Shown here piece by piece: positions 3,971 through 25,543 of a stretch of DNA of 34,464 nucleotides. Source of the DNA: Phycisphaerae bacterium (GTDB taxonomy: Bacteria > Planctomycetota > Phycisphaerae > UBA1845); NCBI GenBank assembly GCA_050050135.1, contig JASFUW010000003.1:1-34464 (forward strand), given 5' to 3'. The first letter of the stretch is position 1; each line of letters begins with the position of its first letter. Under the pieces are notes generated by a model. It did no database searches, had not been told where the DNA came from, and saw only the letters and a list, made by a program, of their open reading frames with translations. Position numbers and translations under genes: made by a program.

Positions 3971-4540
3971 CTAGGGACCGTATTTGGGGACGCGGAGGCG
4001 CTTGGTGGCGGATCGGACGGCCTTGCCGGCCGGGGATTCGTAACGGGTGGTCAGCTCGATCTCGGTTCCCGCGATGGCTTTGTAGGCCCAGCGCAATCCC
4101 ACGTGGTAACCCTTTCCGAGGATGCCCCGGACGGGGGTGAAGGTGTCGGTGGGATAGTGCCAGTCGCTGACGAGGGTCCGCTCGACTTGATCGTCGGACG
4201 CCCTGTCGATCCGGTACATCTCGATGTGGAACATACCGTCGCGCAATACGCCCTTCTGGGCGGCATCGAGAAGGAAGACCCTGAACTCGATGCCCTCGAA
4301 GTCGGCGTCGCCGGCGGTGTCGAGGTTGAGCCAGGGCTTTTGCTCGTACAGACAGAGCACGTGTCGGATCGGGTCGGTCGAGGGCTTGCGTTTGGCGGGG
4401 CGATCGGACGCCACGCGGGTGGGTGAAGGCGACGACTGCGGTCCGGCGCCGCGGCAGCCGGCGAGGAAAAGTGACGCCGTGATGGCACCAATGCCCGCGA
4501 AGCAGCTCAACCCTCGAATGACACGCATCGTTTTCTGCAT
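3971..4540 (-). CDS. Lipoprotein, last gene of the secretion cluster (candidate pilotin/secretin partner)
   Basis: Lipobox LFLAG|C, followed by a Pro/Ser linker and a globular domain; starts 8 nt after the secretin stop with AGGA upstream. Confidence 0.8.
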   Translation of the reverse strand: MQKTMRVIRGLSCFAGIGAITASLFLAGCRGAGPQSSPSPTRVASDRPAKRKPSTDPIRHVLCLYEQKPWLNLDTAGDADFEGIEFRVFLLDAAQKGVLRDGMFHIEMYRIDRASDDQVERTLVSDWHYPTDTFTPVRGILGKGYHVGLRWAYKAIAGTEIELTTRYESPAGKAVRSATKRLRVPKYGP

Positions 4541-4548
4541 GGATGATC

Positions 4549-7500
4549 CTAGTCTATGGGGACGGCGGCTTTCGCGTTGCCGTCGGTTTGCACGATCTTC
4601 GGGCCGTACACCGGACGGCTGGTGGTTGTGGTCGGTTTCGGTCGGGAGATGACCGGTCCGTAGCTCTTGGGTGTGGGGCCGTAGAGCCTGCGCTCCTCCC
4701 GGTCCGGCGTCGAGGTCGGGTCGATCGCGCCGGGCGCTCGGCCGTTGCGGTCAACGGGGCCCATGCCCTGCTCTTCCGCGGTGATCCGGAGCCCTTCCAT
4801 GAGCGCGCTGCTGCGGATGGAGTCGGGGAGCACGAACTTGTCGCGCTGCTCGATCGACATGTGGCGGGCGTCCTGGTCGGTGCGGAGGATGTCGACGGTC
4901 ATGACGATAAGAAGCTCTGTCTTCTGCTCCGAGATGCCGGTGGCGCGGAACAGATGCCCGATCAGCGGAATATCCCCGATCAAGGGGACCTTGTTGTGCC
5001 CCTCGGAATGACGCGAGGTGATCAGCCCGCCGATGACCACGGTCTCGCCGTCGCGAAGGGTGACGTTGGTCTGGACCTCGCTGGTGTTGAACACGGGCTG
5101 CGACACGCCCTCTGTGATCTGGAAGTTCTCTCCGCCGAAGCTGGATATTTCCTGGGACATTTCGACGGTGACGTAGCCGTCGGGGCTGATGTGGGGGGTG
5201 GCGGTGAGCACGATGCCGACGTCCTCTCGGCCGATGACGGTGTTGGTCGAACCGGACTCGGTGACCTGGGAACTTTCGACGAAGGGGATCTCGTCGGCGA
5301 TGGTGATGTTGCCCTCTTCGCCGTTGCGGACGAGGAGGATGGGTCGTGAAAGGACCTCGAGCCGACTTTCACCCTGGAGGGCGTTGACCAGGAACGAGAA
5401 ATCCTCGCCGGCGATGGAGAAGCTGAAGCCGAGGCCACTGCCGACGCCGAAGCCGGTGCCGCCGACGAAGTCGAAGTCGGCGCCTTGGACGAGACCGTTC
5501 GGCCCGACGATGGCGTTTTCGGAGAATCGGAGGTCTTGTCCGGCGAGCTCGACGCCGAGGTCGAAGTCGTCCTGAAGCCTGACCTCGGCGATGAGCACGG
5601 AGATCATGACCTGGGGCTCGGGGCGGTCGAGTTCCTGGATCATGGCCATCGTATCGAGGTAGCTTTGCCTGGAGGTTCCGATGATCAGGCTGCGGCCGCC
5701 CTGCTCTTCGCTGCCGACGGCTTCGACCGATATCTGGCGTTCCATGCGGCGGAGCCTGGCCTCCTGGTCGTCGATTTCGCCGAGGACGTCCTGCTCCTGC
5801 TGGTTGAAGCCCTGGATCGCACTGGCGATCTGATCGGGCTCCATGTACTTAGTCTGCATGACCTGGACGACGCGGTCTTCGGCTTCCTGCGAGTCGAGGT
5901 AACGGACGAGTTCCTCGACCATTCGGAGGTCGACCTCGGCGCCGGCGGCGATGAGGGTGTTGGTTCGTGTGTCGGCGGCGAAGCGGAGGTCCTGGCCTAC
6001 GCTGGAGACCTCGAACTCACCGATGGTATCGCCGAAGACGAGTTGGCTTTTTGCTTCGCCGTCGGCGGTTTCGGCCTCGAAGAGCTCGGTCAGTTGGTCG
6101 ACCATCGACTCGGAGTCGCTGTTGATGAGGGGGAAGAGTCGGATTTCCGAGCGTATGGGTCTGATGGTGTCGAAGTCTCGAATCATGGACTCCAACATGG
6201 CCATGCTGTCCACCGGAGCCATGACCATGAGGGAATTCGTTCGGGGATCTGCTTCGACGGTGATGTCCTGGCGGAGGAGCTTTCGGAGTGTCTCACTGCC
6301 GTCATCCGACTTTTCGATGAAGGAGACGATGACGGCGCGCTCATCGTCGTTGCCCGCCTCCTCGCCGACGACGGTGCGGCGGAGGAGGTCGGCGAAGTCT
6401 TCTGCAAGGGCCTGTTTGAGCTGGACGACCTTGACCATCGTTTCGACCGCGGGGGTGGCTGTGTCGAGTCGGGCGATGACCTGCTCGATGTTCTCCATCT
6501 GAGACGGCGCCGCCCAGACTACGATGGAGTTGGTTCGCTCATCGGCCTCGGTGGCGATGGCGTCGGCGCGTCCGCCTCCCGAGTCCGCTTGCGACTGGAA
6601 AACGCTTTCCAGCTTCTCGGCGACGGAGTTGGCTTTCGCCCGCTGGAGGGGGAAGATCTGGAACTGGCGGGCGATGCTGGAGGGTCTGTCGAGGAGGCTG
6701 AGCAGCTCGGTGATGGCTTCGTGATCGTCGCGGGAGGCGCTGGATACGAGACTGTTGGAGGCTTCGTCGGCGAGGATCACGATGGGTGTGCGGGTGATCT
6801 CGCTGCCCTCGTCACGGGAGTCGAAGAGCTCCTGCATGCGTTCGGCAAGCTGGACCGCAGAGGCGTACTCGAGTGGATAGACCTTGAAGATGGCGGTCAT
6901 GGGACCGACCTTGACGTCGAGGCGCTGAACGAGCCCGGCGGTGCGTTCGAGGGCGTCGCGTGAGCCGGCGACGACGAGTGCATTGCTTCTGGGGTCGGGC
7001 ATGATGGTTGGGGCGGTGAAGGACTCGGAGTCGCCCGCCATGCCCTGGAACAGCTCGTCGAGCATGTCCGCGAGGACGGCGGCGTCGGCGTATTCCAGCT
7101 TGTAGAGCGAGGTGTCCTCGATGACCGGCTGGGACTCGAGGGTGCGGACCAGCTCCTTGATCTCCTCGTAGTCCTCGATGCTGGACGCGATGATGAGGGC
7201 GTTGCTGCGGTCGTCGACGACGACGACGGGGGTGTCTTCGAGGAGTTCCTCTTCGGCGCGCAACTGGGCCTTACGTTCCCAGAGTTCTTCGATCTTCTGC
7301 TTGATGTCGTTAGCGGAGAGGCGTTCGCACCTTACGATGCGAATCTGGTCGAAGAGCTTGGCCGGTTTGGTGTCGAGCTGCCTGGCGAGTCGGAGCACGT
7401 CCTGGTGGTTCTCCTCGGAGGCCGAGAGGATGAGCGAGTTTGTGCGGAGGTCGACACTGAGGAAGATTCGCTCGCGTTCGAGGGCTGCGCGGCCGGCGTC

Positions 7501-9069
7501 GGTGGCTTCAAGGGCTTCCAAACGCTGATCAAAGAGGTCCTGGATGATCTTTGCGACCTTGCTGGCGTCGGTGAATTCGAGCTCGATGAAACGCAGGGGG
7601 AACTTCAAAGCGGTGGCCGGTCGGTCGAGCTCGGCGACGACGGTGTCGACGAGTCGCAACTGTTCCTCGCGACCGGAGACGATGAGGGTGTTGGTTCTGA
7701 TGTCGGTGGAGACGCCGATCTTGTAGGCGAAGGCCTTTCCGACCGGACCATCGGGGACGGACTCTGCGCCGCTGCCGTCGGGGTCTTCGGGGAGTTCCTT
7801 GCCCTTGTCGAACATCTCGTCGATGGTCTCACCGACGGATTCGGCGTCTGCGAATCTAAGTGCGAAGAACCTGACATGGGCGTCTTCGCCGAGGGGCACG
7901 CCGTCCATGAGGCGGATCAACTCGGTCATCGGTCCGACGTTGGCTTCGACGGTGGCGATGATGAGGCTGTTGGTGCCTTCGTCGGCGAGGATGCGGGTCG
8001 GTCGTTCGAGATCGATGGCGGGCAGGTCGATGATCTCACCGGTGGTGGGGTCTGCTTTGCTGATCTGGAGGCGGGAAATGGCCTCTTCGGCTTCTTCACG
8101 ACCGGTATCGGATTTAAGCAGTTCCTCGATGACATCGGCCATCTCGTTGGCTTTGGAGTGGAGAAGCGGGAACAAGACGAGCTTGACCTCGCCCCAACCC
8201 TTGACGGGCTCGACGTCGATTTCGTTCAGCAGGGCCTGGATCTTCTCGCGCTCGGTCTCAGGGGCAAGGACCATAATGCTGTTGTTGGCGTCGTTGGGGA
8301 TGATCTGGAACTCGCCCTTGGCGCCGGTGGCGCCCTGCTTCTCGCGGAGCTTGGTGATGATCTCGGTCAGCTCTTCGGCGACCACGGACGCCCGGCGGTT
8401 CTTGACCGGGAAGACAAGCTGCTCGGGCTCGGGCAGCTCGTCCTTCAGCTCGTCCACCCTGTGGATGACGTCGATGATGAACTCGAGTTCGTTGGGCAGG
8501 GCGGAGACGAGCAGGACGTTGGACGACAGGGCGGTGACGGAGAGTTCGAGCTCCGGTCTGCGGTTGGGCTCGAAGAAGACATCTTTGAGCGGTTGCTCGA
8601 TGGCGCGGGCGATGTCGTTGGCGTCCTTCTCGGTGACGGTGACGACGCGCAGCTCCTTCTTTTCCGTGGTCTTGTCGAGCAAGGCGACCAGCAGCTCAAC
8701 GATCTGGATGTCCTGGGGTTGACCGTAGACGATGATCTGATCACCGACGACCTCGTAGTCGAGTTCGGCGCCGGTGAACGTGATCAGCGAGGGATCGATG
8801 TTCTTGAGGGCCTCCTGAACCGTATCCACTCGGGACTCAGTGCGTGCGCGGGCGGCTTCCTCCGGCGTTACGCCCGGCGGCAACTTCTTGGGCGCGGGTT
8901 GTTTCGGTTGTGCCGCTTGCCTGCGTTTGGCCGGTTGGGTGGGCTTGTCCGGTTGCACATCCTGGGCGACCGCCGCATTCGGGAAGGCGATCAGTGCCAA
9001 CGTCAGTGCACTGCAAACCCACCACGGCCTCGCTACCCGCCGCTGTCGACACCATTCATTTGTCCGCAT
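4549..9069 (-). CDS. gspD: Long GspD-family secretin (~1506 aa): signal peptide, half repeat plus ~12 NolW-like N-repeats, C-terminal secretin domain
   Basis: Start ATG 9069 after AGAGGA; signal peptide ...LALIAFPNAAVA|QD. Repeats follow L-x-Y/F-A-D-A...D-x-R-T-N-S-L-I-V...L-D. Secretin core motifs PQVMISVLIAEV, VLSRP, DVGIVLTATPHI, DGETVVIGGLI, KVPLIGDIPLIGHLFR, TELLIVMT (~4885-5620). Confidence 0.93.
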   Translation of the reverse strand: MRTNEWCRQRRVARPWWVCSALTLALIAFPNAAVAQDVQPDKPTQPAKRRQAAQPKQPAPKKLPPGVTPEEAARARTESRVDTVQEALKNIDPSLITFTGAELDYEVVGDQIIVYGQPQDIQIVELLVALLDKTTEKKELRVVTVTEKDANDIARAIEQPLKDVFFEPNRRPELELSVTALSSNVLLVSALPNELEFIIDVIHRVDELKDELPEPEQLVFPVKNRRASVVAEELTEIITKLREKQGATGAKGEFQIIPNDANNSIMVLAPETEREKIQALLNEIDVEPVKGWGEVKLVLFPLLHSKANEMADVIEELLKSDTGREEAEEAISRLQISKADPTTGEIIDLPAIDLERPTRILADEGTNSLIIATVEANVGPMTELIRLMDGVPLGEDAHVRFFALRFADAESVGETIDEMFDKGKELPEDPDGSGAESVPDGPVGKAFAYKIGVSTDIRTNTLIVSGREEQLRLVDTVVAELDRPATALKFPLRFIELEFTDASKVAKIIQDLFDQRLEALEATDAGRAALERERIFLSVDLRTNSLILSASEENHQDVLRLARQLDTKPAKLFDQIRIVRCERLSANDIKQKIEELWERKAQLRAEEELLEDTPVVVVDDRSNALIIASSIEDYEEIKELVRTLESQPVIEDTSLYKLEYADAAVLADMLDELFQGMAGDSESFTAPTIMPDPRSNALVVAGSRDALERTAGLVQRLDVKVGPMTAIFKVYPLEYASAVQLAERMQELFDSRDEGSEITRTPIVILADEASNSLVSSASRDDHEAITELLSLLDRPSSIARQFQIFPLQRAKANSVAEKLESVFQSQADSGGGRADAIATEADERTNSIVVWAAPSQMENIEQVIARLDTATPAVETMVKVVQLKQALAEDFADLLRRTVVGEEAGNDDERAVIVSFIEKSDDGSETLRKLLRQDITVEADPRTNSLMVMAPVDSMAMLESMIRDFDTIRPIRSEIRLFPLINSDSESMVDQLTELFEAETADGEAKSQLVFGDTIGEFEVSSVGQDLRFAADTRTNTLIAAGAEVDLRMVEELVRYLDSQEAEDRVVQVMQTKYMEPDQIASAIQGFNQQEQDVLGEIDDQEARLRRMERQISVEAVGSEEQGGRSLIIGTSRQSYLDTMAMIQELDRPEPQVMISVLIAEVRLQDDFDLGVELAGQDLRFSENAIVGPNGLVQGADFDFVGGTGFGVGSGLGFSFSIAGEDFSFLVNALQGESRLEVLSRPILLVRNGEEGNITIADEIPFVESSQVTESGSTNTVIGREDVGIVLTATPHISPDGYVTVEMSQEISSFGGENFQITEGVSQPVFNTSEVQTNVTLRDGETVVIGGLITSRHSEGHNKVPLIGDIPLIGHLFRATGISEQKTELLIVMTVDILRTDQDARHMSIEQRDKFVLPDSIRSSALMEGLRITAEEQGMGPVDRNGRAPGAIDPTSTPDREERRLYGPTPKSYGPVISRPKPTTTTSRPVYGPKIVQTDGNAKAAVPID

Positions 9070-9087
9070 GATGGTTTCCTCTGTAAA

Positions 9088-9119
9088 GCCGGGTCTTCCA
9101 TACCGGCCGGGTCTTTCCA
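9088..9119. repeat. Imperfect tandem direct repeat upstream of the secretin RBS
   Basis: GCCGGGTCTTCCA (9088-9100) and GCCGGGTCTTTCCA (9106-9119). Confidence 0.6.
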
Positions 9120-9201
9120 CTCGCGTTCCTTTCGGCTGCCTTCCCCTTGGCGGTACGTTCACGCGTCCCGGATTCACGAATGCCGGGCTTGCCCACGTTT
9201 G

Positions 9202-12200
9202 TCACGGCCGGCGTCCCCTTCCGCTTGAAGCCGGTCGACGACGGCTGCTGGACGAACTCTTGCGCGTGGTGGAGGACGCGCCTTCGCCGCGCAGGCGCTC
9301 GATCAAGCTGGTGAGTTCGTCTGCCGGGACCGTATCGATCGTGATCACGGCCATGCTTCGCCCGCTCATGGGGCCCATTTCTTCCATTTCTCGAGCCAGC
9401 TTCTCCGCATCGTCGAACAGCTCCGGAGAGCCCGCGAAGACCAGAGAGATCGTCCGACGATCCGGCGTCACGGTTATGCTCGGTACGTCACGACGCCCCT
9501 TACCTGAGGTGGCACGTGCGGAAGCACCGTTATTGATCACACTCTCGACGGTCTCGGCCATCTCGGTGACGTTGACACCGGGGGCCAACTGGACGATTCG
9601 GAAGTTGGTACCGCCGGCAGCCTCTTCGGTGTCGAGTTTTTCAACCAGGGACTGGATGGCGCTCAAATCCGCCCGGCCGGCGCTGACGATCAGGTTCTTC
9701 TGGGACTCGTCGGCTGTGATGACGGGGGTTCTCTGCCCTTTCATGGTTCGGCCCTTGGCCTCGACGATCGCCTCCTGCAAAGTGGGTAGTATCTGCCCCG
9801 CAGTTACGTGCTTGAGCGGGATGAGCTGTGGTTCCGTCTGGTCCTTGGCAGCTTCATCGAGCTTGTGAATCTGCTCTTCCAAGTCGTTCACGCGTTCGAG
9901 GCTTCCGCTGACGAGCATCGCGTTACTGCTCGCGAGCGGAGCGAGCTTGATGTTTCCGACCAGCTCCTTGCCTCGCCCTGAAGGCTTTTGTAGTGCCTGC
10001 TCCATGGCACGTTGCATTTCGGTCGCATCACCGTAGAGCAGGGTGACCACGCGGACCTCTTCGGCGCCGGCGGCGGCCTCGCTGTCCAGTTCCTTGATCG
10101 CCGCGTCGATGTCGGCGAAGTCCTGCTCGTTGCACTTGACGAGAAGGGCCTTGGACCCCCCTACCGCCGAGATCGAGATCGGCTGGGGGCCGCCGCGCGG
10201 TCGGGCGGCGGAGCGGATGAAGACCTCCGTCAGCGTGCGTGACATCGACTCGGCATCGGCGTTTTCCAGCGTGACGACGTGAACTTGTTCCTCCGCGCTG
10301 GTCTCGCTATCGAATTCCTCCAGAAAGGCTTCGATGCGCTTCAGGTTGGCGGGTGACGCAGAGACCACGACGGACGAAGTTTCGTGATCGCCGATAGCGG
10401 CGACCTGGTCGCGGGGGCTGCGGCCGCCGCGGAACAACCTGGTGATGGCTTCCTGGGCGATGTAGGGATCGGCGTTATTCAAGTGGAAGCTCTTTACCTG
10501 TTGCATGCCGGTCAGGTCAGGCTCGACGTCGAGCGATTCGATCAACACGGTCAGCTCGAGCATTTCGTCGCGGGTGGCCGAGATCAGGAGGGAGTTCGAG
10601 GCGACATCCGGGGTTATTTGAACGGCTTGTTCGCCGCGGCGCGTGGGTCTTTGTCCGCGATAGACCTGTTGCAGAGCCCGGGCGGTCTCGTCGGCGCTTG
10701 CGTGTTGAAGCTTGTAGGTGTGGAGTTCCTTGGTCAGTGTGGACTCGACGTCCACCTTCTCGATGAAGGCCTTGATAATCGCGTGGGTCTTTGCCGGAGC
10801 GGTGACGATCACCGATTGGGTGGCCCATTCCGGGGACGAGGTCACCTGTTGTGATGGGCTCGGCTGCGAGCGGACATCCCACCGAAACATATTGAGAATG
10901 ACGCCGTTGACACTGCCGGGGTCGGCATACTGGAGGGGATAGACCTCGGTGACGCGTTCGGCCTCCAAGGGCGATTCGATGTCGATCTCGGTGAGCAGAG
11001 CCTCAATCTCGGCGAGCTCTTCGTCGTTAACGTTGGCGACGATGGAGTTGGTCTTGGCGTCTGCGACGAATGCCGGTCCCTGGTCGCCGCGTGTTCGGCG
11101 GGTCACCTGCCGGAACAATTGTGTGAACTGGTTGGCCACCTCGGCGGCCGAGGCGTGGGTAAGCCGCAGCACGTGTCGCCCGCGCTGCCTGGTGGCGACG
11201 GTCTCGTCGTCGAGCCCGTCGAGCAGGTCCTTGATGATCATGTGGTTGGATTCGGACGCGGAGACGACGACGGACTGGGTGCCCTGCTCGGCGAAAGCGG
11301 TAACGACGTCGCGTGGGGCCTGTCTGCCCTTGGTTTGCGAGCGTGATCTGGCCCACTGGTTGATGATGTTGACGACGGCGTTGGGGTCGGCGTACTTGAT
11401 GGCGTAGATCTTCATCGCTGTCGCGCTGATGGCGGCGATGTCTTCGCGGTCGAGCTCGGCGACGCGCTGCCGGACCATCTGCATGTTCGTCTCGGACGCC
11501 TGGACGACGACCTGTTTGGTGTCGGTCACCGGTGTTACGACCACGGTGTAGTCGAGGGGGGGCACGTTGGCCCCGCGCCCGAGCCCCTTCATGGCGCGGG
11601 CCTTGTCCTCGAAGATGCGGTTGAGCGATTCGGCGACCGCTTCGGGCTCGGCGAATTCGAGCGTGATGGTCTCGGTCTGGAGCTTGAGCGCTTCCTGGGC
11701 TTCGAGCGGGTCGATGACCTCGCTTTTGATCTCGTCGAGCTGGGCCTGGGTCCCGCGGACGATGAGCATGTTGAGGGAGCGGTTGGCTTCGGCGGTGGGC
11801 GGTATCTCGCCTTGTGCCAGGTTTCTGCCACTCCAGAGGCGGTTGATGTTCTGTGCCACTTCTGTGGCGTCGCCGTTTTGCAGGTGGATCATCAAGAAGC
11901 CGGGCGGGCTTTTGGCGTAGGCGGGGACGTCGACCTTTGCCAGGTTCTCTTCGATGAACCCGAACACGGCCGGTCCGCCGAGGGCGATGATGGCGTTGGC
12001 CTTGTCGTCGACCTCGACGCTGAATGCCTCGATGTTGGCACCGCGTCCCATGCGCCGCATGTAGTCTGCAATCAGCTTGGTCATCAGGGTGTGGACCTGG
12101 CGGGCGTCGGCGTATTTCAGCGGGTAGATGCGGAACTCGAAGCCGATTTCGCGCGGCTTGTCCAATGACTCGACGAGCGACTCGATCTCGGCGAACATGG

Positions 12201-15200
12201 TGTCGTCGGCCACGACGAAGAGTGTCTTGCTGGGGTCATCGCCGGTGATGGTGAACTGGGTGCCGCCCGATTGACCACCGCCCCGTCGGCCTCGGCTTCC
12301 GCCTCGTCCGCCGTACGCGGTCTGGATCGCCTCCGCGACCTCGGACGCCTGGGCGTGGAGGACGGGGATGACACGAACGGTGTCCGTAATCTCCGCCTCG
12401 GACTCCAACCGGGCGATGGTCTCGTCGATCAGGTCGCGCTGATTGCTAGGGGCGGTGAAGATCAGCATCCGGCTGCCCTCCTCGCCGATGAACACGGGGC
12501 CGGTCTCGTCGCCGGCGGTGGTGGTCCCGCGTCGCGGGCGGCCTCTGCGGCTCGGTGTGCTCCGTTTGCCGGTGAACATCTGGGTGAGGGTGTCGGCGAC
12601 GGCGCCGGCGTCGGCGTGCTTGAGGACGACGTGCTCCCACTGGCGGTCGTCCTTGACGTCGAGGCGGGCGATGATGTCGTCGATCTCCTCGAAGTCGTCT
12701 TCGAGGGCAAGGACGGTGATCATATTGAGCCGCGGGAAGGGAATGAACGTCGGCGCGGTCAGGATACCGGTCGCCCCGCTCGATGATGCATCCCTGCCGC
12801 CCCGCCGCCCACCGCGTGGTCTGGTGGGCTCGTCGCCGTAATGGGTTTCGAGGTATCCGACGACCTCATCCGCATCGGCGTGCTCAAGTTCATAGTACCT
12901 AGCCACTCGTTCGTGAACTTCGGCGGTCTCGAGCTGCTCGATGATGTTCTCGATATAGTCCAAAGCCACCCGCGGCGCGACGGCGATGATCGTGTTCGCG
13001 GTCTCGTTGCTGTGCAGGCTGATGTCCTCGGGATCGATGCCCAGCAGGTCGCCTGTCTTGGTCTCTTGCAGGATGGTCTCGGGGAGTTGACTGCCGGGGC
13101 CGGTGGTGGAGACGGTCGCCTGGGGTTGTGCGCCACGCCGCGTCCGACGGGACCGACTCACCCTTCGGGGCTGCTCGTCGAGACCGAGGATGTCCTTGAG
13201 CATTTCTTCGACTTCGGCGGCGTTGAGTTTTTCGAGACGGAAGATGCGCATTTCACTGTCGATCGGCTTGGGCCGATCGATGGTGGCGAGGAGTTCCAAC
13301 AACGCCGAGTACTGGCTGGTATCCGCGCGGAAGATCAGGGTTCGATCGCGTTCGTTGGCGTAGACCCGAACCGCGGTTTCGGGCAACTGCGGCGCGGCAG
13401 GCGTTGCGGTCGGTTGGGCACCGCGACGTCCGCGACCGGGCTGCTGGTCCTCCTGATCGTCCCGGCCTGGCTGCTGTTGACGGGCCCGTTGTTGCTGCAG
13501 TCGGGCCTGTTGTCGAGCCCGCTGGGCTGCCAAACGCTGCTGCTGGACCATCATCTGCCGCTGCTGACGCGTGGCGTTGTACATTTCATTGATGATGTCC
13601 GCGGCGGTGTTGACGTCGATATAGCGGACGCGGTACACACGGATGTCGGGCCTGGCCGTTGTCTCATCACCGAGGTCCTCATCGATCTCCGTGACCCAGT
13701 CCGGTACCTCGTCGACGACGCTGGCCTGTCCGTTGATATAGAGCACACCCTCTTCATCATCGTATTCGATGATGACCTTCTCTTCGTCCATAAGGGAGGT
13801 GGCCACATCGACCAGCTCTCGGTCGGTCTCTTCCGGCGCGTGGTGCGCGGTTTCTTCCGCCGGGTCCTGCGCGGTCTCGTCCGGTGGGTCCTGCGCGGTG
13901 ACGGTGACGGCGAGCGCGTCAACCATACGGGTGAATCCGGTTGGAAGAACGCACGGGGTCGGCTGTGGCGGAACGGCTTCCCGCGTTGTCGGTTCCGGGA
14001 TCAAGCGTGTGAGCCCGTATTCCTCCGTCGGGCCTTCGCGAAGGTTTTTGATCTGGATGTCCAATTCGGGATGCGTCGCCTGCAGTAGGTATGCCAGCTC
14101 TTTGGCAGTAAGTTTCTTCGGGACTCGAACCGTCTTCCGGATCTTCTTCATTTGATCGGGGTCAGGCTTGTCGACATACTCCCGGATGATCGCCCTGATC
14201 TCGTCGAAGCGCTCTTCATAGGGATACTTGACGACCAGGTAATCGCCCCAGAACGCCTCCTCGACCTTGGGCAGTTCCCCGGGGTAAGACCAGAGCTGCT
14301 CGATGGCCATCTCCGCGTTAAAGACCGCATCGAAGGCGTCGGTGTATCTCAGCTCGTAGGTGAAACTCGGAATGACCGGTGCGCTGGTGACCCCAAGCTC
14401 GTCCTCACTGTCGAACCGCGAGATGGTGTCCTCGATCTCGGCCATCTTCGCCGGGGTGGTGGATACGAGCAAGGTTCGGGAAATCAGGTCGGCCTGCATG
14501 TATAGCTGGTCGCCGTCCCATGTCTTGGTGGAGGCGAACTCGTCCTCTTCCTCCGGCTCGGCGCGTCTTCCGCGGCGGGTGGACGGCTTCGCTCCGGGAC
14601 GCACGATCGGGGTATCCACGGTGTGGATGATGAGCTCGCCGAGTCTGATGAGGTCGGCGTTGGCGATTTCGAATACACGGAGGGCTCGACCGGAGGTTGC
14701 GCGGGCGTCGAGGCGCTCAATCCAACCGACAACTTCGTCGACCTCGGGGCGTTCGCCTCGAAGAACGACAGCTTGACCACCGGGCGCTTCGGCGATGGTC
14801 AGGGCGGTGTACTCGTCCGCCGATCCGGCGGAAGCCTTGCCTTTCGCCCTTCGGGTCGTCGGTCGGGTGGGCGCGCCGCGCATCTCCTTGACGGCTTTTA
14901 CGACGTCGGGCGCCGTGGCGTGTTTTAGCTCGACGAGCTGGACGACGACCTCCTGGTCGTCACCGGGCAGGTCGAACTGGGCGATCAACGTCTTGGCCTC
15001 ATCGATGATGAGCTGCTCGGCGGAGATGACCACGCGACTGCTGCGGGGGTCGGCGAGGATGTGGAAACGCTCCGGCCTGTCGCCGGGTCGCCTCGCGCGT
15101 GTCTTGGATGATGTCCCCGGTGTGGCACTCGGATCAAGCGCGGGGTCCAGCTCTCCGCCGACGGCGAGTTCACGCACCTTCATGTTCAGAAGCGGCGTGA

Positions 15201-18159
15201 TCTGCTCGACGAGTTCGTCGGGATCGGCGAACTTGACCTCGATGAACTCGGTGAAGACCGGTTCGGGTGTGCTTCCGATGCTGAGGACGGCGATGTATTC
15301 GTCGATCTGATCGAAGTCCTCCGAGGGGGCGATGACGAGAAGCTGGCCGATGCCCGGCTGGGCGATGAACCGCGGCGCTTCCCCGGCGGCGGACTTTGCT
15401 CTGCCCTTCGACGATCGCGATCGCGGCGCTGCGGTGGCCATCAGCGACTTCAGCGTCTCGGCGATGTCCTCAATGTCCGCACCCGAGGGGAAGTCCTTGT
15501 AGACTTTCAGTTCGGTCCGGGAATCTTCGACGTCGAACTGCTCGATCAGGGCGGCGACGCGCTCCATTTTTTCGGGCGTGGCGCGCACGATCAGGCGGGT
15601 CCCCAACTCGACGATGGTCAGGTCGGGTGAGATGGTCGGCGAAGCGGCGGCGGCGGCTTGTGCCGCCTTTGATGATCTCCTCCGCGACGGCCTGCCCGCG
15701 TCACCGTCTGCGACGAGCGTTTCGATGAGGGTTTTGATATCACCGGGGTCGGCGTAGCGGATGTCGAACGTGCGTTCCTCGATGTTGACCGGTCGATCGA
15801 TCTCGGCGATCACGTCTTTGATCTGTTCGAGCTGGGTGGGGCTGGCGCCGGTCACGAGGACCGCTTCCTCCGACGGCATGAAACCGACGTTCCAGTCTTG
15901 CCCGGCGATCTCGAAGAAAGCGGGGAGGAGTTCGACGGCTTCGTCCGGGGTGATGTGCTGAAGAGAAAGGCGAACGAAGAGTGGTTCCTCGCTGCCAACC
16001 TCTTCGAGCGAATCGATGATGGGTTTGTACTCTTCCCACTGCTCGTTCGAGCACAACACGTAGAGCCGGCCGGCGTCGTCATCGGGGGTGAACTTGGAGG
16101 CGGTCATCGGGCGTGTACGGCGGCGGCGGGAGGTTCGGGTCTTCGGTTTCGGTGAAGGCGTTGGCGTCGCCTGCGGGGCTGATTCCTGCTCATACTCGCG
16201 GAGGATGCTGGCGACGAAGGACGGGAGCTGATAGGTCAACTCGACGACCCGCAGCTCGACCTCGGCATGGGGAACGTCGAGCTGTTTGACCCAGTTCATG
16301 ACCTGGTTGTACTTGGCGTTGCTTCCGGCGTACCACATGCGGGAGTCATCGTTGGCGTCGGGCACGAGCTGGAAGTCGGCCGGTCCCTTGCCGCGCTCGG
16401 GGTCTGAGGTGACGGTGGGGATGAAGGTTGCCAGCTCTATGGCAGACGCGTGGTTCAGGACAATCTCTATGGGGGGTGCAGACGGCTGGTCGAACTGGGT
16501 GACGTATTTGCGTATCTCGTCGATGTCTTCCTTCTCGCCGATGGCGATGATGGCGTCGGCTGAGGGGTGGGCGATCATGGTCAGCCCGCCCGCGGTCGCC
16601 GAGGTTGTGGGCGTCTGGTCCTTTGCTCCCCGTCGTCGGCGCGAGGGTCGCGCGCGGGTGGATGGGGTGGCGCCGTCTTCGGACGACGAAGCCACGAGGA
16701 TGTCCTCGATGATCTCAATCAGTTCGCCGGGGTCGGCGTGCTGGAGGGGGATCACGACGGGCTCTCCTTCGGGCTGTGGCACGTCGATGTAGGGCAGGAG
16801 CATTTTGATCTCCTGGATCTTGTCCTGCATCGCCCTGACGAGGAGGTACCCGCGGGTGTCGTTGGGCCAGAGCCCGACCTCCGGTTCGAGCATGTTGTCG
16901 AGTCGACTCTGGTCCTTTCCCCCGCCCCGGCGGGAGGCGGTGCTTCGGGTGCGTGCGCCGCCGCCGTCGATGTCCATCATTTCGGAAAGCGTGGCGAGCG
17001 CTTCGCTGGGCGCGATGTGCTCGACGGGAATGATCTCGAGCGTTCGTGGATCGTTGCTGCCGCCGACGAAGATGCGCTTGAACTCGAAGTACTTCTCGAT
17101 GTCGTCCACGAATGCGTAAATGGTGACCGCGTTGCGGTCCTCGATGGGGGTAACGCGGAGGTAGTCGGGCATGAAGTCGCGGACGATGCGCAGATCAGCG
17201 ACGGAGCCTGATTTGGGGGTATAGATGACGAGCACGAGTTCGTCGTCGGGGAGGCCGGCGGCGCGGAAATCCTCGAGCGTTCGGTACATGCGTGTGGGAG
17301 GCAGCTTGCGCAGATAGTCGTTGACCCGGACGACCTCGAGGTGCTTCTCGTGGCGGATTAGATAGTAGGGGTCGTGGGGTTTGTAGTGGCGGAGCAACAT
17401 CCGTACGCGGCTGAACGCCGCCTCGTAGGCGAGTTCCTCGTCCGTAACGAAATTGACTTTCCCGTCCTTTGGTGCCGCGCCTATGACACCCAGTCCGGTT
17501 TGTCGGGCGAACGCGGTGACCAGTTGCTCGTAGCTACCGTCGGCGATGCTGAACGAGTAGATCTTATCCTCGGGCGTGATTTCGCTTAGGGTCGGTTCGA
17601 CATCAAGCGTGGTGGTGTCACCGGATTCGCCTCTACCGGTGACGTCAGGCGGCATGTCGGTGCCCCGGTCGGGCGTCCGACCGGGCCGACTTCCCGTTGG
17701 TCTGCGGGTCGGGGTTCGCGGGTCCTGGTTGTTGCCCCTGCCCGCGGTCGGGTTCGGGCGTGTCGCTCTGCGGTAGCGTTCAGGGACGGTCGGCGTGGTC
17801 TTGGGGTCTTGTTGCGGACGTCGGGTTCCCGCCCTTTCGAGCAACTTCTCGAGATTCTTCTGCGACGCGGGACTGAGTCTGGGCTTGTTCGGACCGCCCG
17901 GTTTGGTGATGGGTGTCTTCGGTTTGTCGGCGTCGTCGTCCGATTCATCCTCGGACTCATCGTCTGGCGGCACATCGTCGTCCGGAGGGGGATCGGCCTG
18001 TTCTTCGCCCTCTTCCGGTTCCGGGTCCGGTGCGAGCGAAGGAGCGGCCACATCGGGCGCGGTTGCCTGCGATGCCGACAAGTCGGTCGTCAGAACGGGC
18101 CCCATGGCAAGCGCGAGACCGAGTAAAAGGATGGCTCTCAACACGATTTCCCGATTCAT
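9202..18159 (-). CDS. Giant secretin N-terminal-domain repeat protein (~2985 aa): signal peptide, N0-like domain, ~30 NolW-like repeats, no secretin barrel
   Basis: Start ATG 18159 (MNREIVLRAILLLGLALAMG). N0-like segment YSFSIADGSYEQLVTAFARQTG. About 30 repeats counted by eye, e.g. IPLQHADPGEL...HPSADAIIAIG...FDQP and YPLKYADARQV...DDKANAIIALG...VDVP. No PQVxI or GDIPxxGxLF motifs. Confidence 0.9.
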   Translation of the reverse strand: MNREIVLRAILLLGLALAMGPVLTTDLSASQATAPDVAAPSLAPDPEPEEGEEQADPPPDDDVPPDDESEDESDDDADKPKTPITKPGGPNKPRLSPASQKNLEKLLERAGTRRPQQDPKTTPTVPERYRRATRPNPTAGRGNNQDPRTPTRRPTGSRPGRTPDRGTDMPPDVTGRGESGDTTTLDVEPTLSEITPEDKIYSFSIADGSYEQLVTAFARQTGLGVIGAAPKDGKVNFVTDEELAYEAAFSRVRMLLRHYKPHDPYYLIRHEKHLEVVRVNDYLRKLPPTRMYRTLEDFRAAGLPDDELVLVIYTPKSGSVADLRIVRDFMPDYLRVTPIEDRNAVTIYAFVDDIEKYFEFKRIFVGGSNDPRTLEIIPVEHIAPSEALATLSEMMDIDGGGARTRSTASRRGGGKDQSRLDNMLEPEVGLWPNDTRGYLLVRAMQDKIQEIKMLLPYIDVPQPEGEPVVIPLQHADPGELIEIIEDILVASSSEDGATPSTRARPSRRRRGAKDQTPTTSATAGGLTMIAHPSADAIIAIGEKEDIDEIRKYVTQFDQPSAPPIEIVLNHASAIELATFIPTVTSDPERGKGPADFQLVPDANDDSRMWYAGSNAKYNQVMNWVKQLDVPHAEVELRVVELTYQLPSFVASILREYEQESAPQATPTPSPKPKTRTSRRRRTRPMTASKFTPDDDAGRLYVLCSNEQWEEYKPIIDSLEEVGSEEPLFVRLSLQHITPDEAVELLPAFFEIAGQDWNVGFMPSEEAVLVTGASPTQLEQIKDVIAEIDRPVNIEERTFDIRYADPGDIKTLIETLVADGDAGRPSRRRSSKAAQAAAAASPTISPDLTIVELGTRLIVRATPEKMERVAALIEQFDVEDSRTELKVYKDFPSGADIEDIAETLKSLMATAAPRSRSSKGRAKSAAGEAPRFIAQPGIGQLLVIAPSEDFDQIDEYIAVLSIGSTPEPVFTEFIEVKFADPDELVEQITPLLNMKVRELAVGGELDPALDPSATPGTSSKTRARRPGDRPERFHILADPRSSRVVISAEQLIIDEAKTLIAQFDLPGDDQEVVVQLVELKHATAPDVVKAVKEMRGAPTRPTTRRAKGKASAGSADEYTALTIAEAPGGQAVVLRGERPEVDEVVGWIERLDARATSGRALRVFEIANADLIRLGELIIHTVDTPIVRPGAKPSTRRGRRAEPEEEDEFASTKTWDGDQLYMQADLISRTLLVSTTPAKMAEIEDTISRFDSEDELGVTSAPVIPSFTYELRYTDAFDAVFNAEMAIEQLWSYPGELPKVEEAFWGDYLVVKYPYEERFDEIRAIIREYVDKPDPDQMKKIRKTVRVPKKLTAKELAYLLQATHPELDIQIKNLREGPTEEYGLTRLIPEPTTREAVPPQPTPCVLPTGFTRMVDALAVTVTAQDPPDETAQDPAEETAHHAPEETDRELVDVATSLMDEEKVIIEYDDEEGVLYINGQASVVDEVPDWVTEIDEDLGDETTARPDIRVYRVRYIDVNTAADIINEMYNATRQQRQMMVQQQRLAAQRARQQARLQQQRARQQQPGRDDQEDQQPGRGRRGAQPTATPAAPQLPETAVRVYANERDRTLIFRADTSQYSALLELLATIDRPKPIDSEMRIFRLEKLNAAEVEEMLKDILGLDEQPRRVSRSRRTRRGAQPQATVSTTGPGSQLPETILQETKTGDLLGIDPEDISLHSNETANTIIAVAPRVALDYIENIIEQLETAEVHERVARYYELEHADADEVVGYLETHYGDEPTRPRGGRRGGRDASSSGATGILTAPTFIPFPRLNMITVLALEDDFEEIDDIIARLDVKDDRQWEHVVLKHADAGAVADTLTQMFTGKRSTPSRRGRPRRGTTTAGDETGPVFIGEEGSRMLIFTAPSNQRDLIDETIARLESEAEITDTVRVIPVLHAQASEVAEAIQTAYGGRGGSRGRRGGGQSGGTQFTITGDDPSKTLFVVADDTMFAEIESLVESLDKPREIGFEFRIYPLKYADARQVHTLMTKLIADYMRRMGRGANIEAFSVEVDDKANAIIALGGPAVFGFIEENLAKVDVPAYAKSPPGFLMIHLQNGDATEVAQNINRLWSGRNLAQGEIPPTAEANRSLNMLIVRGTQAQLDEIKSEVIDPLEAQEALKLQTETITLEFAEPEAVAESLNRIFEDKARAMKGLGRGANVPPLDYTVVVTPVTDTKQVVVQASETNMQMVRQRVAELDREDIAAISATAMKIYAIKYADPNAVVNIINQWARSRSQTKGRQAPRDVVTAFAEQGTQSVVVSASESNHMIIKDLLDGLDDETVATRQRGRHVLRLTHASAAEVANQFTQLFRQVTRRTRGDQGPAFVADAKTNSIVANVNDEELAEIEALLTEIDIESPLEAERVTEVYPLQYADPGSVNGVILNMFRWDVRSQPSPSQQVTSSPEWATQSVIVTAPAKTHAIIKAFIEKVDVESTLTKELHTYKLQHASADETARALQQVYRGQRPTRRGEQAVQITPDVASNSLLISATRDEMLELTVLIESLDVEPDLTGMQQVKSFHLNNADPYIAQEAITRLFRGGRSPRDQVAAIGDHETSSVVVSASPANLKRIEAFLEEFDSETSAEEQVHVVTLENADAESMSRTLTEVFIRSAARPRGGPQPISISAVGGSKALLVKCNEQDFADIDAAIKELDSEAAAGAEEVRVVTLLYGDATEMQRAMEQALQKPSGRGKELVGNIKLAPLASSNAMLVSGSLERVNDLEEQIHKLDEAAKDQTEPQLIPLKHVTAGQILPTLQEAIVEAKGRTMKGQRTPVITADESQKNLIVSAGRADLSAIQSLVEKLDTEEAAGGTNFRIVQLAPGVNVTEMAETVESVINNGASARATSGKGRRDVPSITVTPDRRTISLVFAGSPELFDDAEKLAREMEEMGPMSGRSMAVITIDTVPADELTSLIERLRGEGASSTTRKSSSSSRRRPASSGRGRRP

Positions 18160-18261
18160 CTCGACGTCTCCGTCCTCACGCGATTTCCGCGTGGCGGTCA
18201 AATGGCACTCAGGTGGCGGCAAGAGACGGCGGCCACTCGTTGTCGCCCCTTACGGGGCATG

Positions 18262-20250
18262 CTATTCGTCCTTAGCGTCCTTGCCTTTGTCCTTTCCGTC
18301 GTCCTTGTTCTCGGTTTGCCCCTTTCCCTGTTCCTTCTCTTCCTTCTTGCCGTCTTCTTTCTTGCCCTCGTCCTTCTTGTCCGCGGTCGCCTCGTCCTTC
18401 ACCTCTTTTACCCCCTCCCCTTCAGCGGATGCACCCGGCTTTCTTCCCGGGTCGGGCTCCGGTTTCGGCGTTTTCCCCAGATTCCTGGGTTGGAACTTTC
18501 CTCGTCGCGACGAGCCCGGGGCTCTGCGGGTGTTCGGTTTCTTGACTTTTCGGTCCGTCCTGCCCGGTCTGTGTGTCCGGGTGATGGCCGGTTTCTTCGT
18601 TCCGGGCTGCGGGGTGAACTTACCCGTTCGTTTTGTGGGACCGTCGCGCTTGGCGTCGGGCGACTCCGCCGGGGCCTGCGGGGTGTTTCGTACGCCCGGC
18701 CTTCCGGACGGGGCTCCGGTCCTGGCTGTACCCGGCCGGCCGGGCACCGGCGACTTCGGGTCCCGGACGGTTGTGTCCGGCTGCTTCGCCGAAGACGGCG
18801 CCTCGGCACTGCCCGGGTTTCGCGGGGCCCCCTGCCCCGTTCGCGCGGGCGTTGATGGTGCCTTTGTTTTGTCACTTTTCTGCGCGGCTTCGGCGGCTTT
18901 CCGTTCGGCTTCGGCTGCTTCACGGGCGGCCTCTTCGGCCGCCTTCTTTTCCTCCTCGTCCTTGATCTTGTGCGCAACGGCCTTTAGCTCGGGGTATTCG
19001 TCGGCTGCGTTGTTGACCACGTTGACGGCTTCGTTGAGCCAGTGCCCGATCGGGTAGATGAAGAAGTCATCACTTCTACGCGCCAGCACGCCCGTCGGAT
19101 GCATGGCCAGCAGCTCTCCGCCGTCGAATTCCTGACCTTTGGTGTAGTACTCGGTCTGGTGGGTCCGGCGGTTGTCGATCATCGCCTCCCAGATCCGCTC
19201 CGAACCGCTTCGCGTACCCAGGACCATCACGAGCTGCATGTTCTTGGCGTACTTCCAGGGTTGGGGTTTTGGCGGCGTCGGAGGAGAAGGATCTTCTCGG
19301 TCGGGTCCGGGCGGCGGTGGCACGACGCGCTTCGGCTCGACCTTGACCCGTAGCGAGTCGGTCGCGGTCCACCCTTGACCGTCGGTGGCGGTGACCACGT
19401 ACGTTCGATCATAGGGCTCGGACACGTCGAGCTCGGTTCGACAGTCGTCGGCCTTTTCAAGACCGTCGGCGGGCTCCCACTTACAGGTGTACTGCTTGTC
19501 TCCGCCGGTGACGCGAGCCCTCAGGTTGGACTTTCTCCTCTGCGGGCTTCTGAGTTTGATGTCGCGCCCGGCGTCGACTTTGAGCGGATCATAGTCGGGC
19601 TCGGGTGTGAAGGGCGTGCCGGCCCACAAGGAGGAATAATCACGCTCCTCATGGCGTACGAAGGACTCGGGTTGGTCGAGGTCCTGCGGTTTGATCTTCC
19701 CGACCTTTTCGTGTTGTGGCGGGATGAGGATCTCGATGGGAACGCGAATGTTCATCTTGGCGGGGCCGCGCTCCTTGCGAGACCGACTCGCGGGGTAGAT
19801 GGCGGGGTTGGTGACGCGGGCCAACTGGGGCAGTTCGGACGCGTCCCGCAAGAACTCGATCGCCGCCTGCAAGGTGCCCTGACCCTTGACCGTCACGGTG
19901 AGGAAGGTGAGGTCGGTTTTTTGATCGCGCTTCGGTCGGCTCGGCACGGTGCTGGCATCTACGAGCTTGTGCTTTTCGATGAGTTTGTTGAGTCGGTCGC
20001 GGAGGTCGGTCTCGACCTTTCCGAGATCGAAGGACCCGGCGCGTCCCGCTAGAGCCTGATACTTCTTGGCCCACTGCTTGACTTCCGTCTCGACGGCTTT
20101 GAGCTCTTCGTATCGCTCGTTTTTCTCAGCGATCCGGTCGTCGATGGTGAGAAGCGGTTTGATCCATTGCGGGTAGACGACCGAGTCCACGATAAACAGA
20201 AGGACCAGGACGCCGAGGGCACCCGCCAGAATTGGTTTGAGTCTTTCCAT
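18262..20250 (-). CDS. Bitopic assembly-platform protein: GspM/PilO-like domain + Ig/PKD-like domain + GspC-HR/PilP-like domain + low-complexity tail
   Basis: N-terminal TM and coiled coil; ferredoxin-like segment LTVTVKGQGTLQAAIEFL; Ig-like VDAGRD...YTCKWEP...TYVVTATDGQG; HR-like QLVMVLG...AMIDN...YYTKGQEFDGGELLAMHPTGV; lies between the PilMN gene and the secretins. Confidence 0.7.
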   Translation of the reverse strand: MERLKPILAGALGVLVLLFIVDSVVYPQWIKPLLTIDDRIAEKNERYEELKAVETEVKQWAKKYQALAGRAGSFDLGKVETDLRDRLNKLIEKHKLVDASTVPSRPKRDQKTDLTFLTVTVKGQGTLQAAIEFLRDASELPQLARVTNPAIYPASRSRKERGPAKMNIRVPIEILIPPQHEKVGKIKPQDLDQPESFVRHEERDYSSLWAGTPFTPEPDYDPLKVDAGRDIKLRSPQRRKSNLRARVTGGDKQYTCKWEPADGLEKADDCRTELDVSEPYDRTYVVTATDGQGWTATDSLRVKVEPKRVVPPPPGPDREDPSPPTPPKPQPWKYAKNMQLVMVLGTRSGSERIWEAMIDNRRTHQTEYYTKGQEFDGGELLAMHPTGVLARRSDDFFIYPIGHWLNEAVNVVNNAADEYPELKAVAHKIKDEEEKKAAEEAAREAAEAERKAAEAAQKSDKTKAPSTPARTGQGAPRNPGSAEAPSSAKQPDTTVRDPKSPVPGRPGTARTGAPSGRPGVRNTPQAPAESPDAKRDGPTKRTGKFTPQPGTKKPAITRTHRPGRTDRKVKKPNTRRAPGSSRRGKFQPRNLGKTPKPEPDPGRKPGASAEGEGVKEVKDEATADKKDEGKKEDGKKEEKEQGKGQTENKDDGKDKGKDAKDE

Positions 20251-20287: not shown

Positions 20288-21895
20288 TCATTCACCCGAT
20301 CCCCGGCCGGACTTGCCCTTTCGAGGCGGGCCGTCGTCGAGGATGGTGATCCGAAAATCCTGACTGAACGAGTACTTCTCGTTCTTTTTTTCCGTCTGCG
20401 ACCCGACACGGACGCGGAATCGCGGTTCTTCGTGACCCTCGCGGCGAAAGTCCATCAACCTGCGCCGGACATCCATGGCTGTGCCTCGCTCCCTGGTTTG
20501 GGTCTTGAGTGTCAGACGTCCGTCTTTCTGGTTCATTTCCAGGTTGTTGACGACCAAGTCCTTGTGGGAAGGGAGCTGGGAGAAGACGTCGTAAAGTACG
20601 TCGACCCAGACGTGCTGATCCGCGTCGAACGCCTCGACGTACCTGGCCAACTGGATGAACTTCTTGTTGTCCCGTCGCTCGCCCTCCAGCTCCGCGATTC
20701 GCTTATCGAGGGCTTGAAGGGTGTTTCGATCGTCCTGGGTGATTCCTGCCAAGGTGACGGCACCCGCAGCCAGAAAGAGCAGAGCGACCGCGGCTGCGAT
20801 CGGCGCTTTGCGAAGTCTCTGTGTGGTCTCCGAGACGCGCTTCTTGGGATGGAGGAAGTCGAAGCTTGAGGCACCCAGATCGGCGTGGCTGAGGACCAGG
20901 CCCAAGGAAGCTGCGAAGGCTGACGCCGCCGCACCTTCATCGGGTTCCCATCCGAAGGTCGTGGCCGGGTTGTACAACTCGGTGCTTATGTGCAGTTCCC
21001 GTTGGATTTCCTCGGCGAGCGCTTCCTCGACACCCACGTCACCACCAATGACGACGTGATCGATCTGCGCCCCCGGATCACCCTGGCGGTACGCCTCGAT
21101 CGAACGGGTGACTTCGAGCATGAGGGACCGGACGACGCGTTCGGGCCCGCCGGGCTCGTCTGCCAAGTCAGTGGCACCCAATCTGGGCTCATGTCCCGGA
21201 GCGGGCCCCGCCGGGCCGATCGAGCGAGGTGGCGGATGGGTGCTGATGCCCTTGGGAATCATCACCGACGCCGACCGCGAGAAGGTCAAGGCCGAATGAC
21301 GCAGGACGTCGATTTCCATGAAGGAAGGTCTGACGTCGATGAACAAGACGCGTTCGGGCATGCCGTGTCTGAGCACCTCGCAGACGGCGGCCTTGCTGGC
21401 GTAGGGTCGAAGACCGACACGATCGAGCCGCAGGCCGGCGGCGCTGAGCGAGGCCTCGTATTGTTCGAGCAGCTCGCGGCGGATGGCGGCGACCAGGACG
21501 TCGGAGGTCGCGCTGTCGTCCGGAGCGAGCGAAGCCGCGAAATCGATGACCGCCTCGGTCGCCGGAAAGGGCAGCTCTTTTGCGATCTGAATCTCGACCA
21601 TGCCGGCGAGGTCCTGCGACTGCGCGGCCGGCAGGGCGAGCGTCTTGAGGATGGCCTGGTCGCGCGGGACGTCGACGATCGCGTGTTTCGTGCCGATCCC
21701 CTCTTGTCGCAGCGTCTGTTGAATGTGGAATCCGATCTGTGTGGGCTCGTTCGGATCGACATTCTTGGGAACGGCCACCGAGAGCAGACGGTCGATCTTC
21801 ACGCCCTTCTTGTTCAAGAAGGCGTGGACGATGCGGAGCGTGTGCGCATCCCAGTCGATCGCCAGAATCCTCTTTTGCCTGGCTTTAGCGGACAC
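20288..21895 (-). CDS. PilM-PilN fusion (GspL-like): actin-like cytoplasmic domain, TM helix, coiled coil, ferredoxin-like domain
   Basis: ILAIDWD, KELPFPATEAVIDF, VLVAAI, AAGLRLDRV, EVTRSIEAY, VVIGGD, FAASLGLVL, FDFLHPKK, then TM and WVDVLYDVFSQLP; GTG start overlaps the gspK stop. Confidence 0.85.
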   Translation of the reverse strand: MSAKARQKRILAIDWDAHTLRIVHAFLNKKGVKIDRLLSVAVPKNVDPNEPTQIGFHIQQTLRQEGIGTKHAIVDVPRDQAILKTLALPAAQSQDLAGMVEIQIAKELPFPATEAVIDFAASLAPDDSATSDVLVAAIRRELLEQYEASLSAAGLRLDRVGLRPYASKAAVCEVLRHGMPERVLFIDVRPSFMEIDVLRHSALTFSRSASVMIPKGISTHPPPRSIGPAGPAPGHEPRLGATDLADEPGGPERVVRSLMLEVTRSIEAYRQGDPGAQIDHVVIGGDVGVEEALAEEIQRELHISTELYNPATTFGWEPDEGAAASAFAASLGLVLSHADLGASSFDFLHPKKRVSETTQRLRKAPIAAAVALLFLAAGAVTLAGITQDDRNTLQALDKRIAELEGERRDNKKFIQLARYVEAFDADQHVWVDVLYDVFSQLPSHKDLVVNNLEMNQKDGRLTLKTQTRERGTAMDVRRRLMDFRREGHEEPRFRVRVGSQTEKKNEKYSFSQDFRITILDDGPPRKGKSGRGSGE

Positions 21896-25497: not shown

Positions 25498-25543
25498 TTT
25501 GTCAGCTTGTCGTATCCCCGATGGCGGTCCCGCGTGGTGCAGG

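Follow-up and report, generated by a model that had tools for sequence, protein, structure and literature searches.

Two adjacent genes of a Phycisphaerae bacterium that probably encode one giant type II-type secretin, with the gene boundary inside a single N domain

Do two large adjacent genes of a Phycisphaerae bacterium, one without an outer-membrane barrel and the other without an N0 domain, encode two independent proteins or the two parts of a single giant secretin? The genes lie on contig JASFUW010000003.1 of assembly GCA_050050135.1, and the window analysed here is this complete contig (34,464 nucleotides) of a draft genome with 572 contigs and 84% completeness. Secretins are usually viewed as single-chain channels that have no more than about six rings in the periplasm, and canonical GspD of the type II secretion system (T2SS) consists of domains N0 to N3 plus a barrel and assembles as a 12- to 15-mer whose stacked rings form a channel. 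A preliminary description of the window had taken the upstream gene for a barrel-less chain with an N0-like domain and many repeats, and the downstream gene for a chain with about 12 repeats and the barrel but no N0, and had proposed that the two are parts of one secretin. We found all genes of interest on the minus strand, with the genes for the large and the small chain where that description had placed them, at the end of a T2SS-like operon. The two genes comprise the following features.

9202-18159, minus strand: barrel-less large chain of 2985 aa with signal peptide, N0 plus N1-like domain, about 29 Secretin_N domains, C-terminal half domain and basic tail.
18064-18159, minus strand: signal-peptide-like N-terminus of the large chain, read by eye in the translation.
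17038-17610, minus strand: N0 and adjoining N1-like domain, from an AlphaFold2 model and Foldseek.
14404-17034, minus strand: module A, the first Secretin_N run (residues 397-1273), from Pfam and our own profile.
9382-13641, minus strand: module B, the second Secretin_N run (residues 1528-2947), from Pfam and our own profile.
9268-9387, minus strand: C-terminal half N domain (MGPxGG-like turn, beta1, alpha1), from profile matches and alignments.
9205-9267, minus strand: Arg/Ser/Gly-rich C-terminal tail, from translation and composition.
9070-9201, minus strand: intergenic spacer of 132 nt between the large and the small gene.
4549-9069, minus strand: barrel-bearing small chain of 1506 aa, from Pfam and NCBIfam.
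8965-9069, minus strand: signal-peptide-like N-terminus of the small chain, read by eye in the translation.
8668-8829, minus strand: N-terminal half N domain (short helix, beta2, beta3, alpha2, with an LSGAE-type motif), from profile matches and alignments.
5620-8649, minus strand: twelve Secretin_N domains, from Pfam and our own profile.
4882-5382, minus strand: secretin barrel (PF00263), from Pfam.

The open reading frame of the large chain spans 9202-18222, and the gene-caller start, an ATG at 18159, gives 2985 aa. As the preliminary description had expected of a scan with hidden Markov models (HMMs), the repeats matched the Pfam family Secretin_N (PF03958), in 24 stretches of the large chain (E 8.7e-190) and in 11 stretches of the small chain (E 4.8e-111). 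An N-domain HMM of our own, built from 25 repeats of the window and with the window chains as part of its training set, found 27 domains in the large chain (residues 397-2947) and 12 in the small chain. The barrel family PF00263 was without a Pfam match in the large chain at E<=0.1, and by this measure the large chain alone is not a secretin. The small chain (open reading frame 4549-9177, ATG at 9069) carries the barrel at residues 1266-1432, where all 169 profile positions of PF00263 are covered (E 1.3e-44). Against TIGR02517, the GspD model with a cut-off of 351.35 bits, the large chain scored 576 bits and the small chain 619.2 bits, both scores being inflated because the domains are repeated. 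Of the two chains only the small one extends over profile positions 113-600, which make up everything after N0 in this profile of 600 positions.

The large chain has some peculiarities of composition. Most of its N domains contain Arg/Ser/Gly-rich loops between alpha1 and beta2 (window positions 9205-17034, minus strand), and one of these loops, at residues ~1545-1600, forms a long helix-like stretch rich in Gln and Arg. In large-chain orthologues the C-terminal tail contains 26% Arg and usually has Arg as its last residue.

Pfam N0 families such as PF21305 gave no match in either chain, and the N0 domain was therefore assigned by fold. An AlphaFold2 model of large-chain residues ~197-399, which follow a low-complexity N-terminus, was built from an alignment of 38 rows (A3) and reached a predicted local distance difference test (pLDDT) score of 90.2 and a predicted template modelling score of 0.81. 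Its best Foldseek matches in the PDB were the N0-N1(-N2) domains of XcpQ (5ngi), GspD (3ezj), GspC-GspD (3oss) and EscC (3gr5), the top match having an E-value of 1.8e-6 and a probability of 1.00. The isolated GspD N0 domain 4jtm aligned with the model over 80 columns with a template modelling (TM) score of 0.74 and a root mean square deviation of 2.5 A. The TM score of the whole model was low (~0.32), which fits two domains in a differing mutual orientation. An HMM of the N0 region found no match in the small chain. With the N0 fold on the large chain and no N0 match on the small one, N0 and barrel are located on separate polypeptides. In GspD, N0 stands at the N-terminus of the polypeptide that bears the barrel; the small chain does not show this arrangement, which appears only when both chains are taken together.

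These results agree with the domain layout of the preliminary description for both chains, as does the signal-peptide-like N-terminus that we read in each translation. Its total of about 43 N domains also held, our own count being ~42-43: the N1-like domain, 27 domains in the large chain, one or two divergent ones in the gap between residues 1273 and 1528, 12 in the small chain, and one domain shared between the chains.

This arrangement is not peculiar to the genome under study. With the large chain as query, the best 62 database matches (E<=5e-143, 1883-3545 aa) contained Secretin_N and were all without PF00263, and more distant matches (20-27% identity, mostly 3600-5100 aa) contained both Secretin_N and a barrel; relatives have generic database names such as 'secretin N-terminal domain-containing protein'. 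Among sampled genomes the N0 region was present in 186 of the 201 that belong to the order of the window, including 46/47 of its family, and is thus the rule in this order; among 400 other sampled genomes of the phylum there were two weak matches. A locus search with the whole large protein had returned two loci, both cut at the junction, and loci were then taken from a search across genomes. Lengths given for frames of relatives are measured from stop to stop and slightly overestimate protein length. In 20/20 loci from the family of the window, a second frame, encoding 11-16 N domains, comes directly after a barrel-less frame (2591-3252 aa, N0 plus 17-31 N domains). This second frame carried the barrel in 19 of them, and the remaining locus reaches the contig end first.

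Sister families of the same order encode the same domains in one, two or three genes. In a first set of single frames (n=7; 4115-5207 aa) N0, 35-48 N domains and the barrel stand in one frame, and in a second set, of which the C-terminal two thirds were fetched, N domains and barrel shared one frame in 20/20 cases; over both sets this held for all 27 frames examined. Family f110 has a gene pair (3520-3823 aa and 1435-1725 aa), and so does family f106, with 5458-5504 aa (57-59 domains) followed by 1808-1847 aa (14-15 domains plus barrel). The f106 pairs (L029+L070 and L044+L071), with ~7300 aa and 71-74 N domains, were the largest among the relatives examined. Family f108 has three genes: the first encodes 1290-1320 aa with N0 and 8 domains, the second 1165-1254 aa with 13 domains, and the third 1605-1659 aa with 14 domains and the barrel. 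In BLASTP comparisons with the single frames, the large chain of the window corresponded to their N-terminal part and the small chain to their last 1300-1500 residues. A tree of the barrel-end region, made with a quick method and with Shimodaira-Hasegawa-like approximate likelihood ratio test (SH-aLRT) values as its only support, placed f1, f108 and f110, which are all split at the junction of modules B and C, in one clade (SH-aLRT 97); the placement of f106 and, with long outgroup branches, the root were not resolved. On this tree the split state needs one or two changes, and the three-gene family is nested inside the two-gene clade. Orthology thus supports the preliminary proposal that the two proteins are parts of one secretin: the pair is collinear with the single frames of sister families, it was found in all 20 family loci, and its break point is fixed.

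Judged from HMM matches and alignments, the gene boundary falls at one fixed point inside an N domain, in its long loop. The large chain ends with a Gly-rich turn, beta1, alpha1 and the Arg/Ser/Gly tail, corresponding to the first half of the N-domain HMM, and the mature small chain starts, after a linker, with beta2-beta3-alpha2 and the LSGAE-type motif, corresponding to the second half. Upstream C-termini matched the first half in 22/24 pairs, and downstream N-termini matched the second half in 24/24. One of the two missing cases, L041, has a frame that overruns the true end, and its half domain was found further in. In the other (L009:9394-9726) a whole N domain forms the very end of the upstream protein, with a gap of 330 nt before the next frame; this ending may be a frameshift or a real variant. 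Family f106 shares the break point of the window, and in f108 it separates gene 2 from gene 3. Both halves are conserved as well as the adjoining whole domains, with a mean pairwise identity of 0.31 and 0.37 for the halves, 0.34 and 0.32 for the neighbouring whole domains and 0.21 for the linker.

Single frames offered a further view of the same joint. HMMs of the two halves were built from 22 pairs and scored also on loci outside that set, the independent loci being only 28 single frames, two f106 loci, two f108 loci, L024 and L041. In first-set single frames the best matches to the two halves were adjacent and in order in 8/8, with gaps of 85-163 aa in seven and, in the remaining one, a weak half match and a gap of 346 aa; in the second set, gaps of 81-207 aa separated the halves in 14/20. 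By our estimate, chance would make the halves adjacent in a few per cent of cases with ~25-45 domains per frame. HMMER itself joined both halves into a single N domain, with an insertion of 100 aa, in two single frames. For the junction, an AlphaFold2 model based on an alignment of 21 rows of single-frame junction regions (A5) showed strand-helix, 94 residues with pLDDT<50 and then strand-strand-helix, with the halves at pLDDT ~76-84 and placed between two ordinary N domains. This model aligned over 299-312 columns with chains of ExeD, PulD, GspD and EpsD. A complex prediction that combined the last 135 aa of the large chain with the first 150 aa of the mature small chain scored 0.15 against a mark of 0.32, which we take as neutral. 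The junction loop of single frames also contains a conserved hydrophobic segment ending in A-x-A-Q, with a basic stretch before it (L034:7355-8299, L028, L030, L048-L067). This segment resembles a signal peptide; it may be a relic, or it may serve for processing or as an internal start.

A second joint of this kind lies between modules A and B. At the boundary between genes 1 and 2 of f108 the break is again strand-helix versus strand-strand-helix, and gene 2 has a signal peptide. The fused counterpart in the large chain of the window lies at residues ~1339-1555:

13558-14208, minus strand: fused junction of modules A and B, with a half-domain-like beta1-alpha1, a 93-aa linker and beta2-beta3-alpha2; it is a gene boundary in f108.

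This second intradomain junction leads to a division of the whole protein into three modules (A, B and C), with both joints at fixed positions within a domain. That the three-gene family nests within the two-gene clade speaks against reading signal-peptide-like segments at the A-B junction as relics of fusion. In most family orthologues the linker of this junction (window 13700-14040, minus strand; residues ~1396-1488) contains a conserved Pro-Cys-Val-Leu-Pro-type motif and a weakly hydrophobic stretch.

The genome of the window encodes a second barrel-less gene on another contig, C71 (L047:9266-12994, minus strand). Its product of 1242 aa comprises N0 and ~9 N domains and stops precisely at the half domain of the A-B junction; over the N0 region it shares 47% identity with the large chain. 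No N-domain or secretin gene adjoins it, and it is flanked by a sigma-54 two-component pair and small genes of unknown function. Of 47 other genomes of the family, six likewise gave two matches to the N0 region.

The genomic surroundings of the pair point to a T2SS-like system. Upstream of the large-chain gene and in the same direction lie genes for GspF, GspG, two proteins with N-methyl motifs, a GspJ-like protein, GspK, a PilM/GspL-like protein and a 662-aa protein, and downstream of the small-chain gene lie a 189-aa lipoprotein-like gene and a gene for an HtrA-type protease.

20288-28433, minus strand: T2SS-like genes identified by family search (PilM/GspL-like, GspK, GspJ-like, two pseudopilin-like genes with N-methyl motifs, GspG, GspF).
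18262-20250, minus strand: 662-aa membrane protein without a Pfam family, its N-terminus PilO/GspM-like (lead only).
3971-4540, minus strand: 189-aa lipoprotein-like gene directly downstream of the barrel gene, without a Pfam family.

No GspE was found on the window contig, and other parts of the genome gave 14 matches to PF00437. Neither the GspC family nor the GspD-type pilotin family was recognised by Pfam among the operon proteins. The 662-aa protein has an N-terminal membrane segment, a middle part of Ig-like type and a long tail rich in Lys, Pro and Glu. Its resemblance to PilO/GspM, seen in Atlas structure rows over the first 180 residues, is no more than a lead, and a PDB sequence search with the protein gave chance low-complexity matches only. 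It may be a candidate inner-membrane partner of N0, which in GspD binds the HR domain of GspC. Homologues of the 189-aa gene, found by tblastn, lay directly downstream of the barrel gene in 26/39 loci examined, in several families, and we regard this gene as a pilotin candidate. The same genome encodes four further secretin barrels of ordinary size.

Taken together, we think that the two genes probably, though not securely, encode separately exported chains of one giant T2SS-type secretin, which would dock through a split N domain rebuilt in trans. The small chain would provide the outer-membrane barrel and ~12 periplasmic tiers of N domains, and the large chain ~29 more tiers and the N0 domain facing the inner-membrane platform. 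In the periplasm the two halves would rebuild one N domain, and this domain would couple every large chain with a single small chain, setting a 1:1 stoichiometry. The tiers would then stack as rings beneath the barrel. Secretin rings are ~3 nm high, and ~42 tiers at this height would give a conduit of the order of 100 nm or more, which might serve pseudopilus-driven secretion or a fibre system.

Several points weigh against this interpretation. The contact between the two chains and the packing of the halves in cis are both inferred, the latter from pLDDT and secondary structure only. The half-domain HMMs were scored in part on the 22 pairs from which they had been trained, 6/20 second-set single frames did not show adjacent halves (three had no matches, one had them out of order, and two had gaps of 324 and 758 aa), and the L009 pair is without the upstream half. 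In some downstream chains a helix just before beta2 could replace alpha1, so that the complementing piece may be a strand only, or nothing at all. The ATPase gene sits outside the operon. The halves could also be inert relics of a fission.

A wider version of the split-secretin model is possible but on balance doubtful. It would have the whole order build a modular, multi-chain trans-periplasmic tube of ~35-74 tiers from modules A (N0 end), B (middle) and C (barrel end), with N domains rebuilt in trans, and this tube could carry pili or fibres across the enlarged periplasm of planctomycetes. Single frames may be cut likewise into these modules, since their signal-peptide-like A-x-A-Q segment sits exactly at the junction loop.

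The alternative that survives best keeps the same machine and does away with the docking: the rings would simply stack on each other, or the large chains would form a separate stack anchored in the inner membrane, and the halves would be unpaired leftovers of the fission. N-domain rings do stack non-covalently in solved secretins, several downstream chains have a helix before beta2 that could make up the second half without a partner, and L009 manages without its upstream counterpart. Unpaired half domains would however be expected to decay, whereas both halves are conserved like whole domains among sequences that are only 18-56% identical, and the same intradomain break occurs in four families and is repeated at the second junction. 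We consider this explanation rather unlikely.

Less probable still is that the N-domain arrays, instead of a straight stacked tube, form a flexible or folded scaffold, for example binding the cell wall or anionic polymers through their Arg-rich loops, or that a polymer or fibre, and not folded protein, is what the system exports. Such functions would agree with the Arg/Ser/Gly-rich loops in most large-chain N domains and the tail with 26% Arg, and the range of ~35 to 74 domains among relatives is hard to fit to one periplasm width. T2SS secretins are moreover needed for slime export in cyanobacteria and myxobacteria according to the abstract of PMC12475490. The repeats, on the other hand, match the ring-building Secretin_N family throughout, N0 is found at the far end as in canonical secretins, and the operon includes pseudopilins with GspK. 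That a single giant secretin was split by faulty assembly or a frameshift, or has become a pseudogene, as the fragmented draft and the single-frame forms in relatives might suggest, is extremely improbable, given the pair in 20/20 family loci and in further families, a start and signal-peptide-like sequence on each downstream gene, and, in the window, a clean TGA stop at 9202-9204 followed after 132 nt by an ATG at 9067-9069 with a Shine-Dalgarno-like GAGGAAA 7 nt before it.

How does a giant secretin docked in this way compare with known systems? Like GspD, XcpQ and PulD of the T2SS, the window pair combines an N0 fold, Secretin_N domains and a C-terminal barrel, scores above the TIGR02517 cut-off and belongs to an operon with GspF, GspG, GspJ-like and GspK genes. 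In contrast to these proteins, which have three, it has ~42 N domains distributed over two polypeptides, with N0 and barrel on different chains. The single-frame giants of sister families (4115-5207 aa) are orthologous and collinear and have the same junction domain, but where these carry a signal-peptide-like segment in the junction loop, the window pair has stop, spacer and start.

The preliminary description had regarded a two-chain extender of this kind as uncharacterised. For planctomycetes this stood, in that a search of a limited set of main texts found no giant or split secretin from the group, and the words 'secretin' and 'type II secretion' are absent from a 2025 review of the phylum. 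The split as such has a precedent: the secretin gene of rhizobial-type type III secretion systems (T3SS) is divided into rhcC1/nolW and rhcC2, and in Bradyrhizobium elkanii into three ORFs (open reading frames), with the significance of the division stated as unknown in the sections of PMC3574062 and PMC3973906 available to us. As far as these sections go, that system likewise pairs a gene for N-terminal domains with a barrel gene and sometimes uses three genes, but it is a T3SS of normal total secretin size with parts that are often far apart, whereas the window pair is T2SS-type, with adjacent genes and ~10 times more N domains, and the same sections do not describe a break inside a domain, as is present in the window pair. 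The best equivalog of the window chains is GspD rather than SctC, and the gene cluster is T2SS-like. The window pair works like a split secretin, yet it is outside the T3SS lineage of rhcC1/rhcC2.

Extra rings are also known from elsewhere. PilQ of Thermus thermophilus extends its periplasmic part with six stacked rings (N0-N5); the portion of PMC5745081 consulted counts it among the largest characterised and connects the extension with a wide periplasm. According to the same text PilQ is a single chain of 757 aa for type IV pili and DNA uptake; here ~42 domains (up to 71-74 in relatives) are encoded on one to three chains. With split secretin genes and additional rings already known, what is new is that the gene cut lies inside one N domain. 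The unusual features of the system are the number of domains, the modular encoding in one to three genes, and the intradomain joints.

The secretins of this lineage comprise 35-74 ring-building domains distributed over one, two or three genes, with breaks at fixed intradomain points. If the halves rejoin in trans, this would represent a natural case of split-domain complementation that bolts ring stacks together and, if true, also a rule for building very long periplasmic conduits. The pair and its relatives offer concrete targets for the question of how proteins or fibres cross the unusual envelope of planctomycetes.

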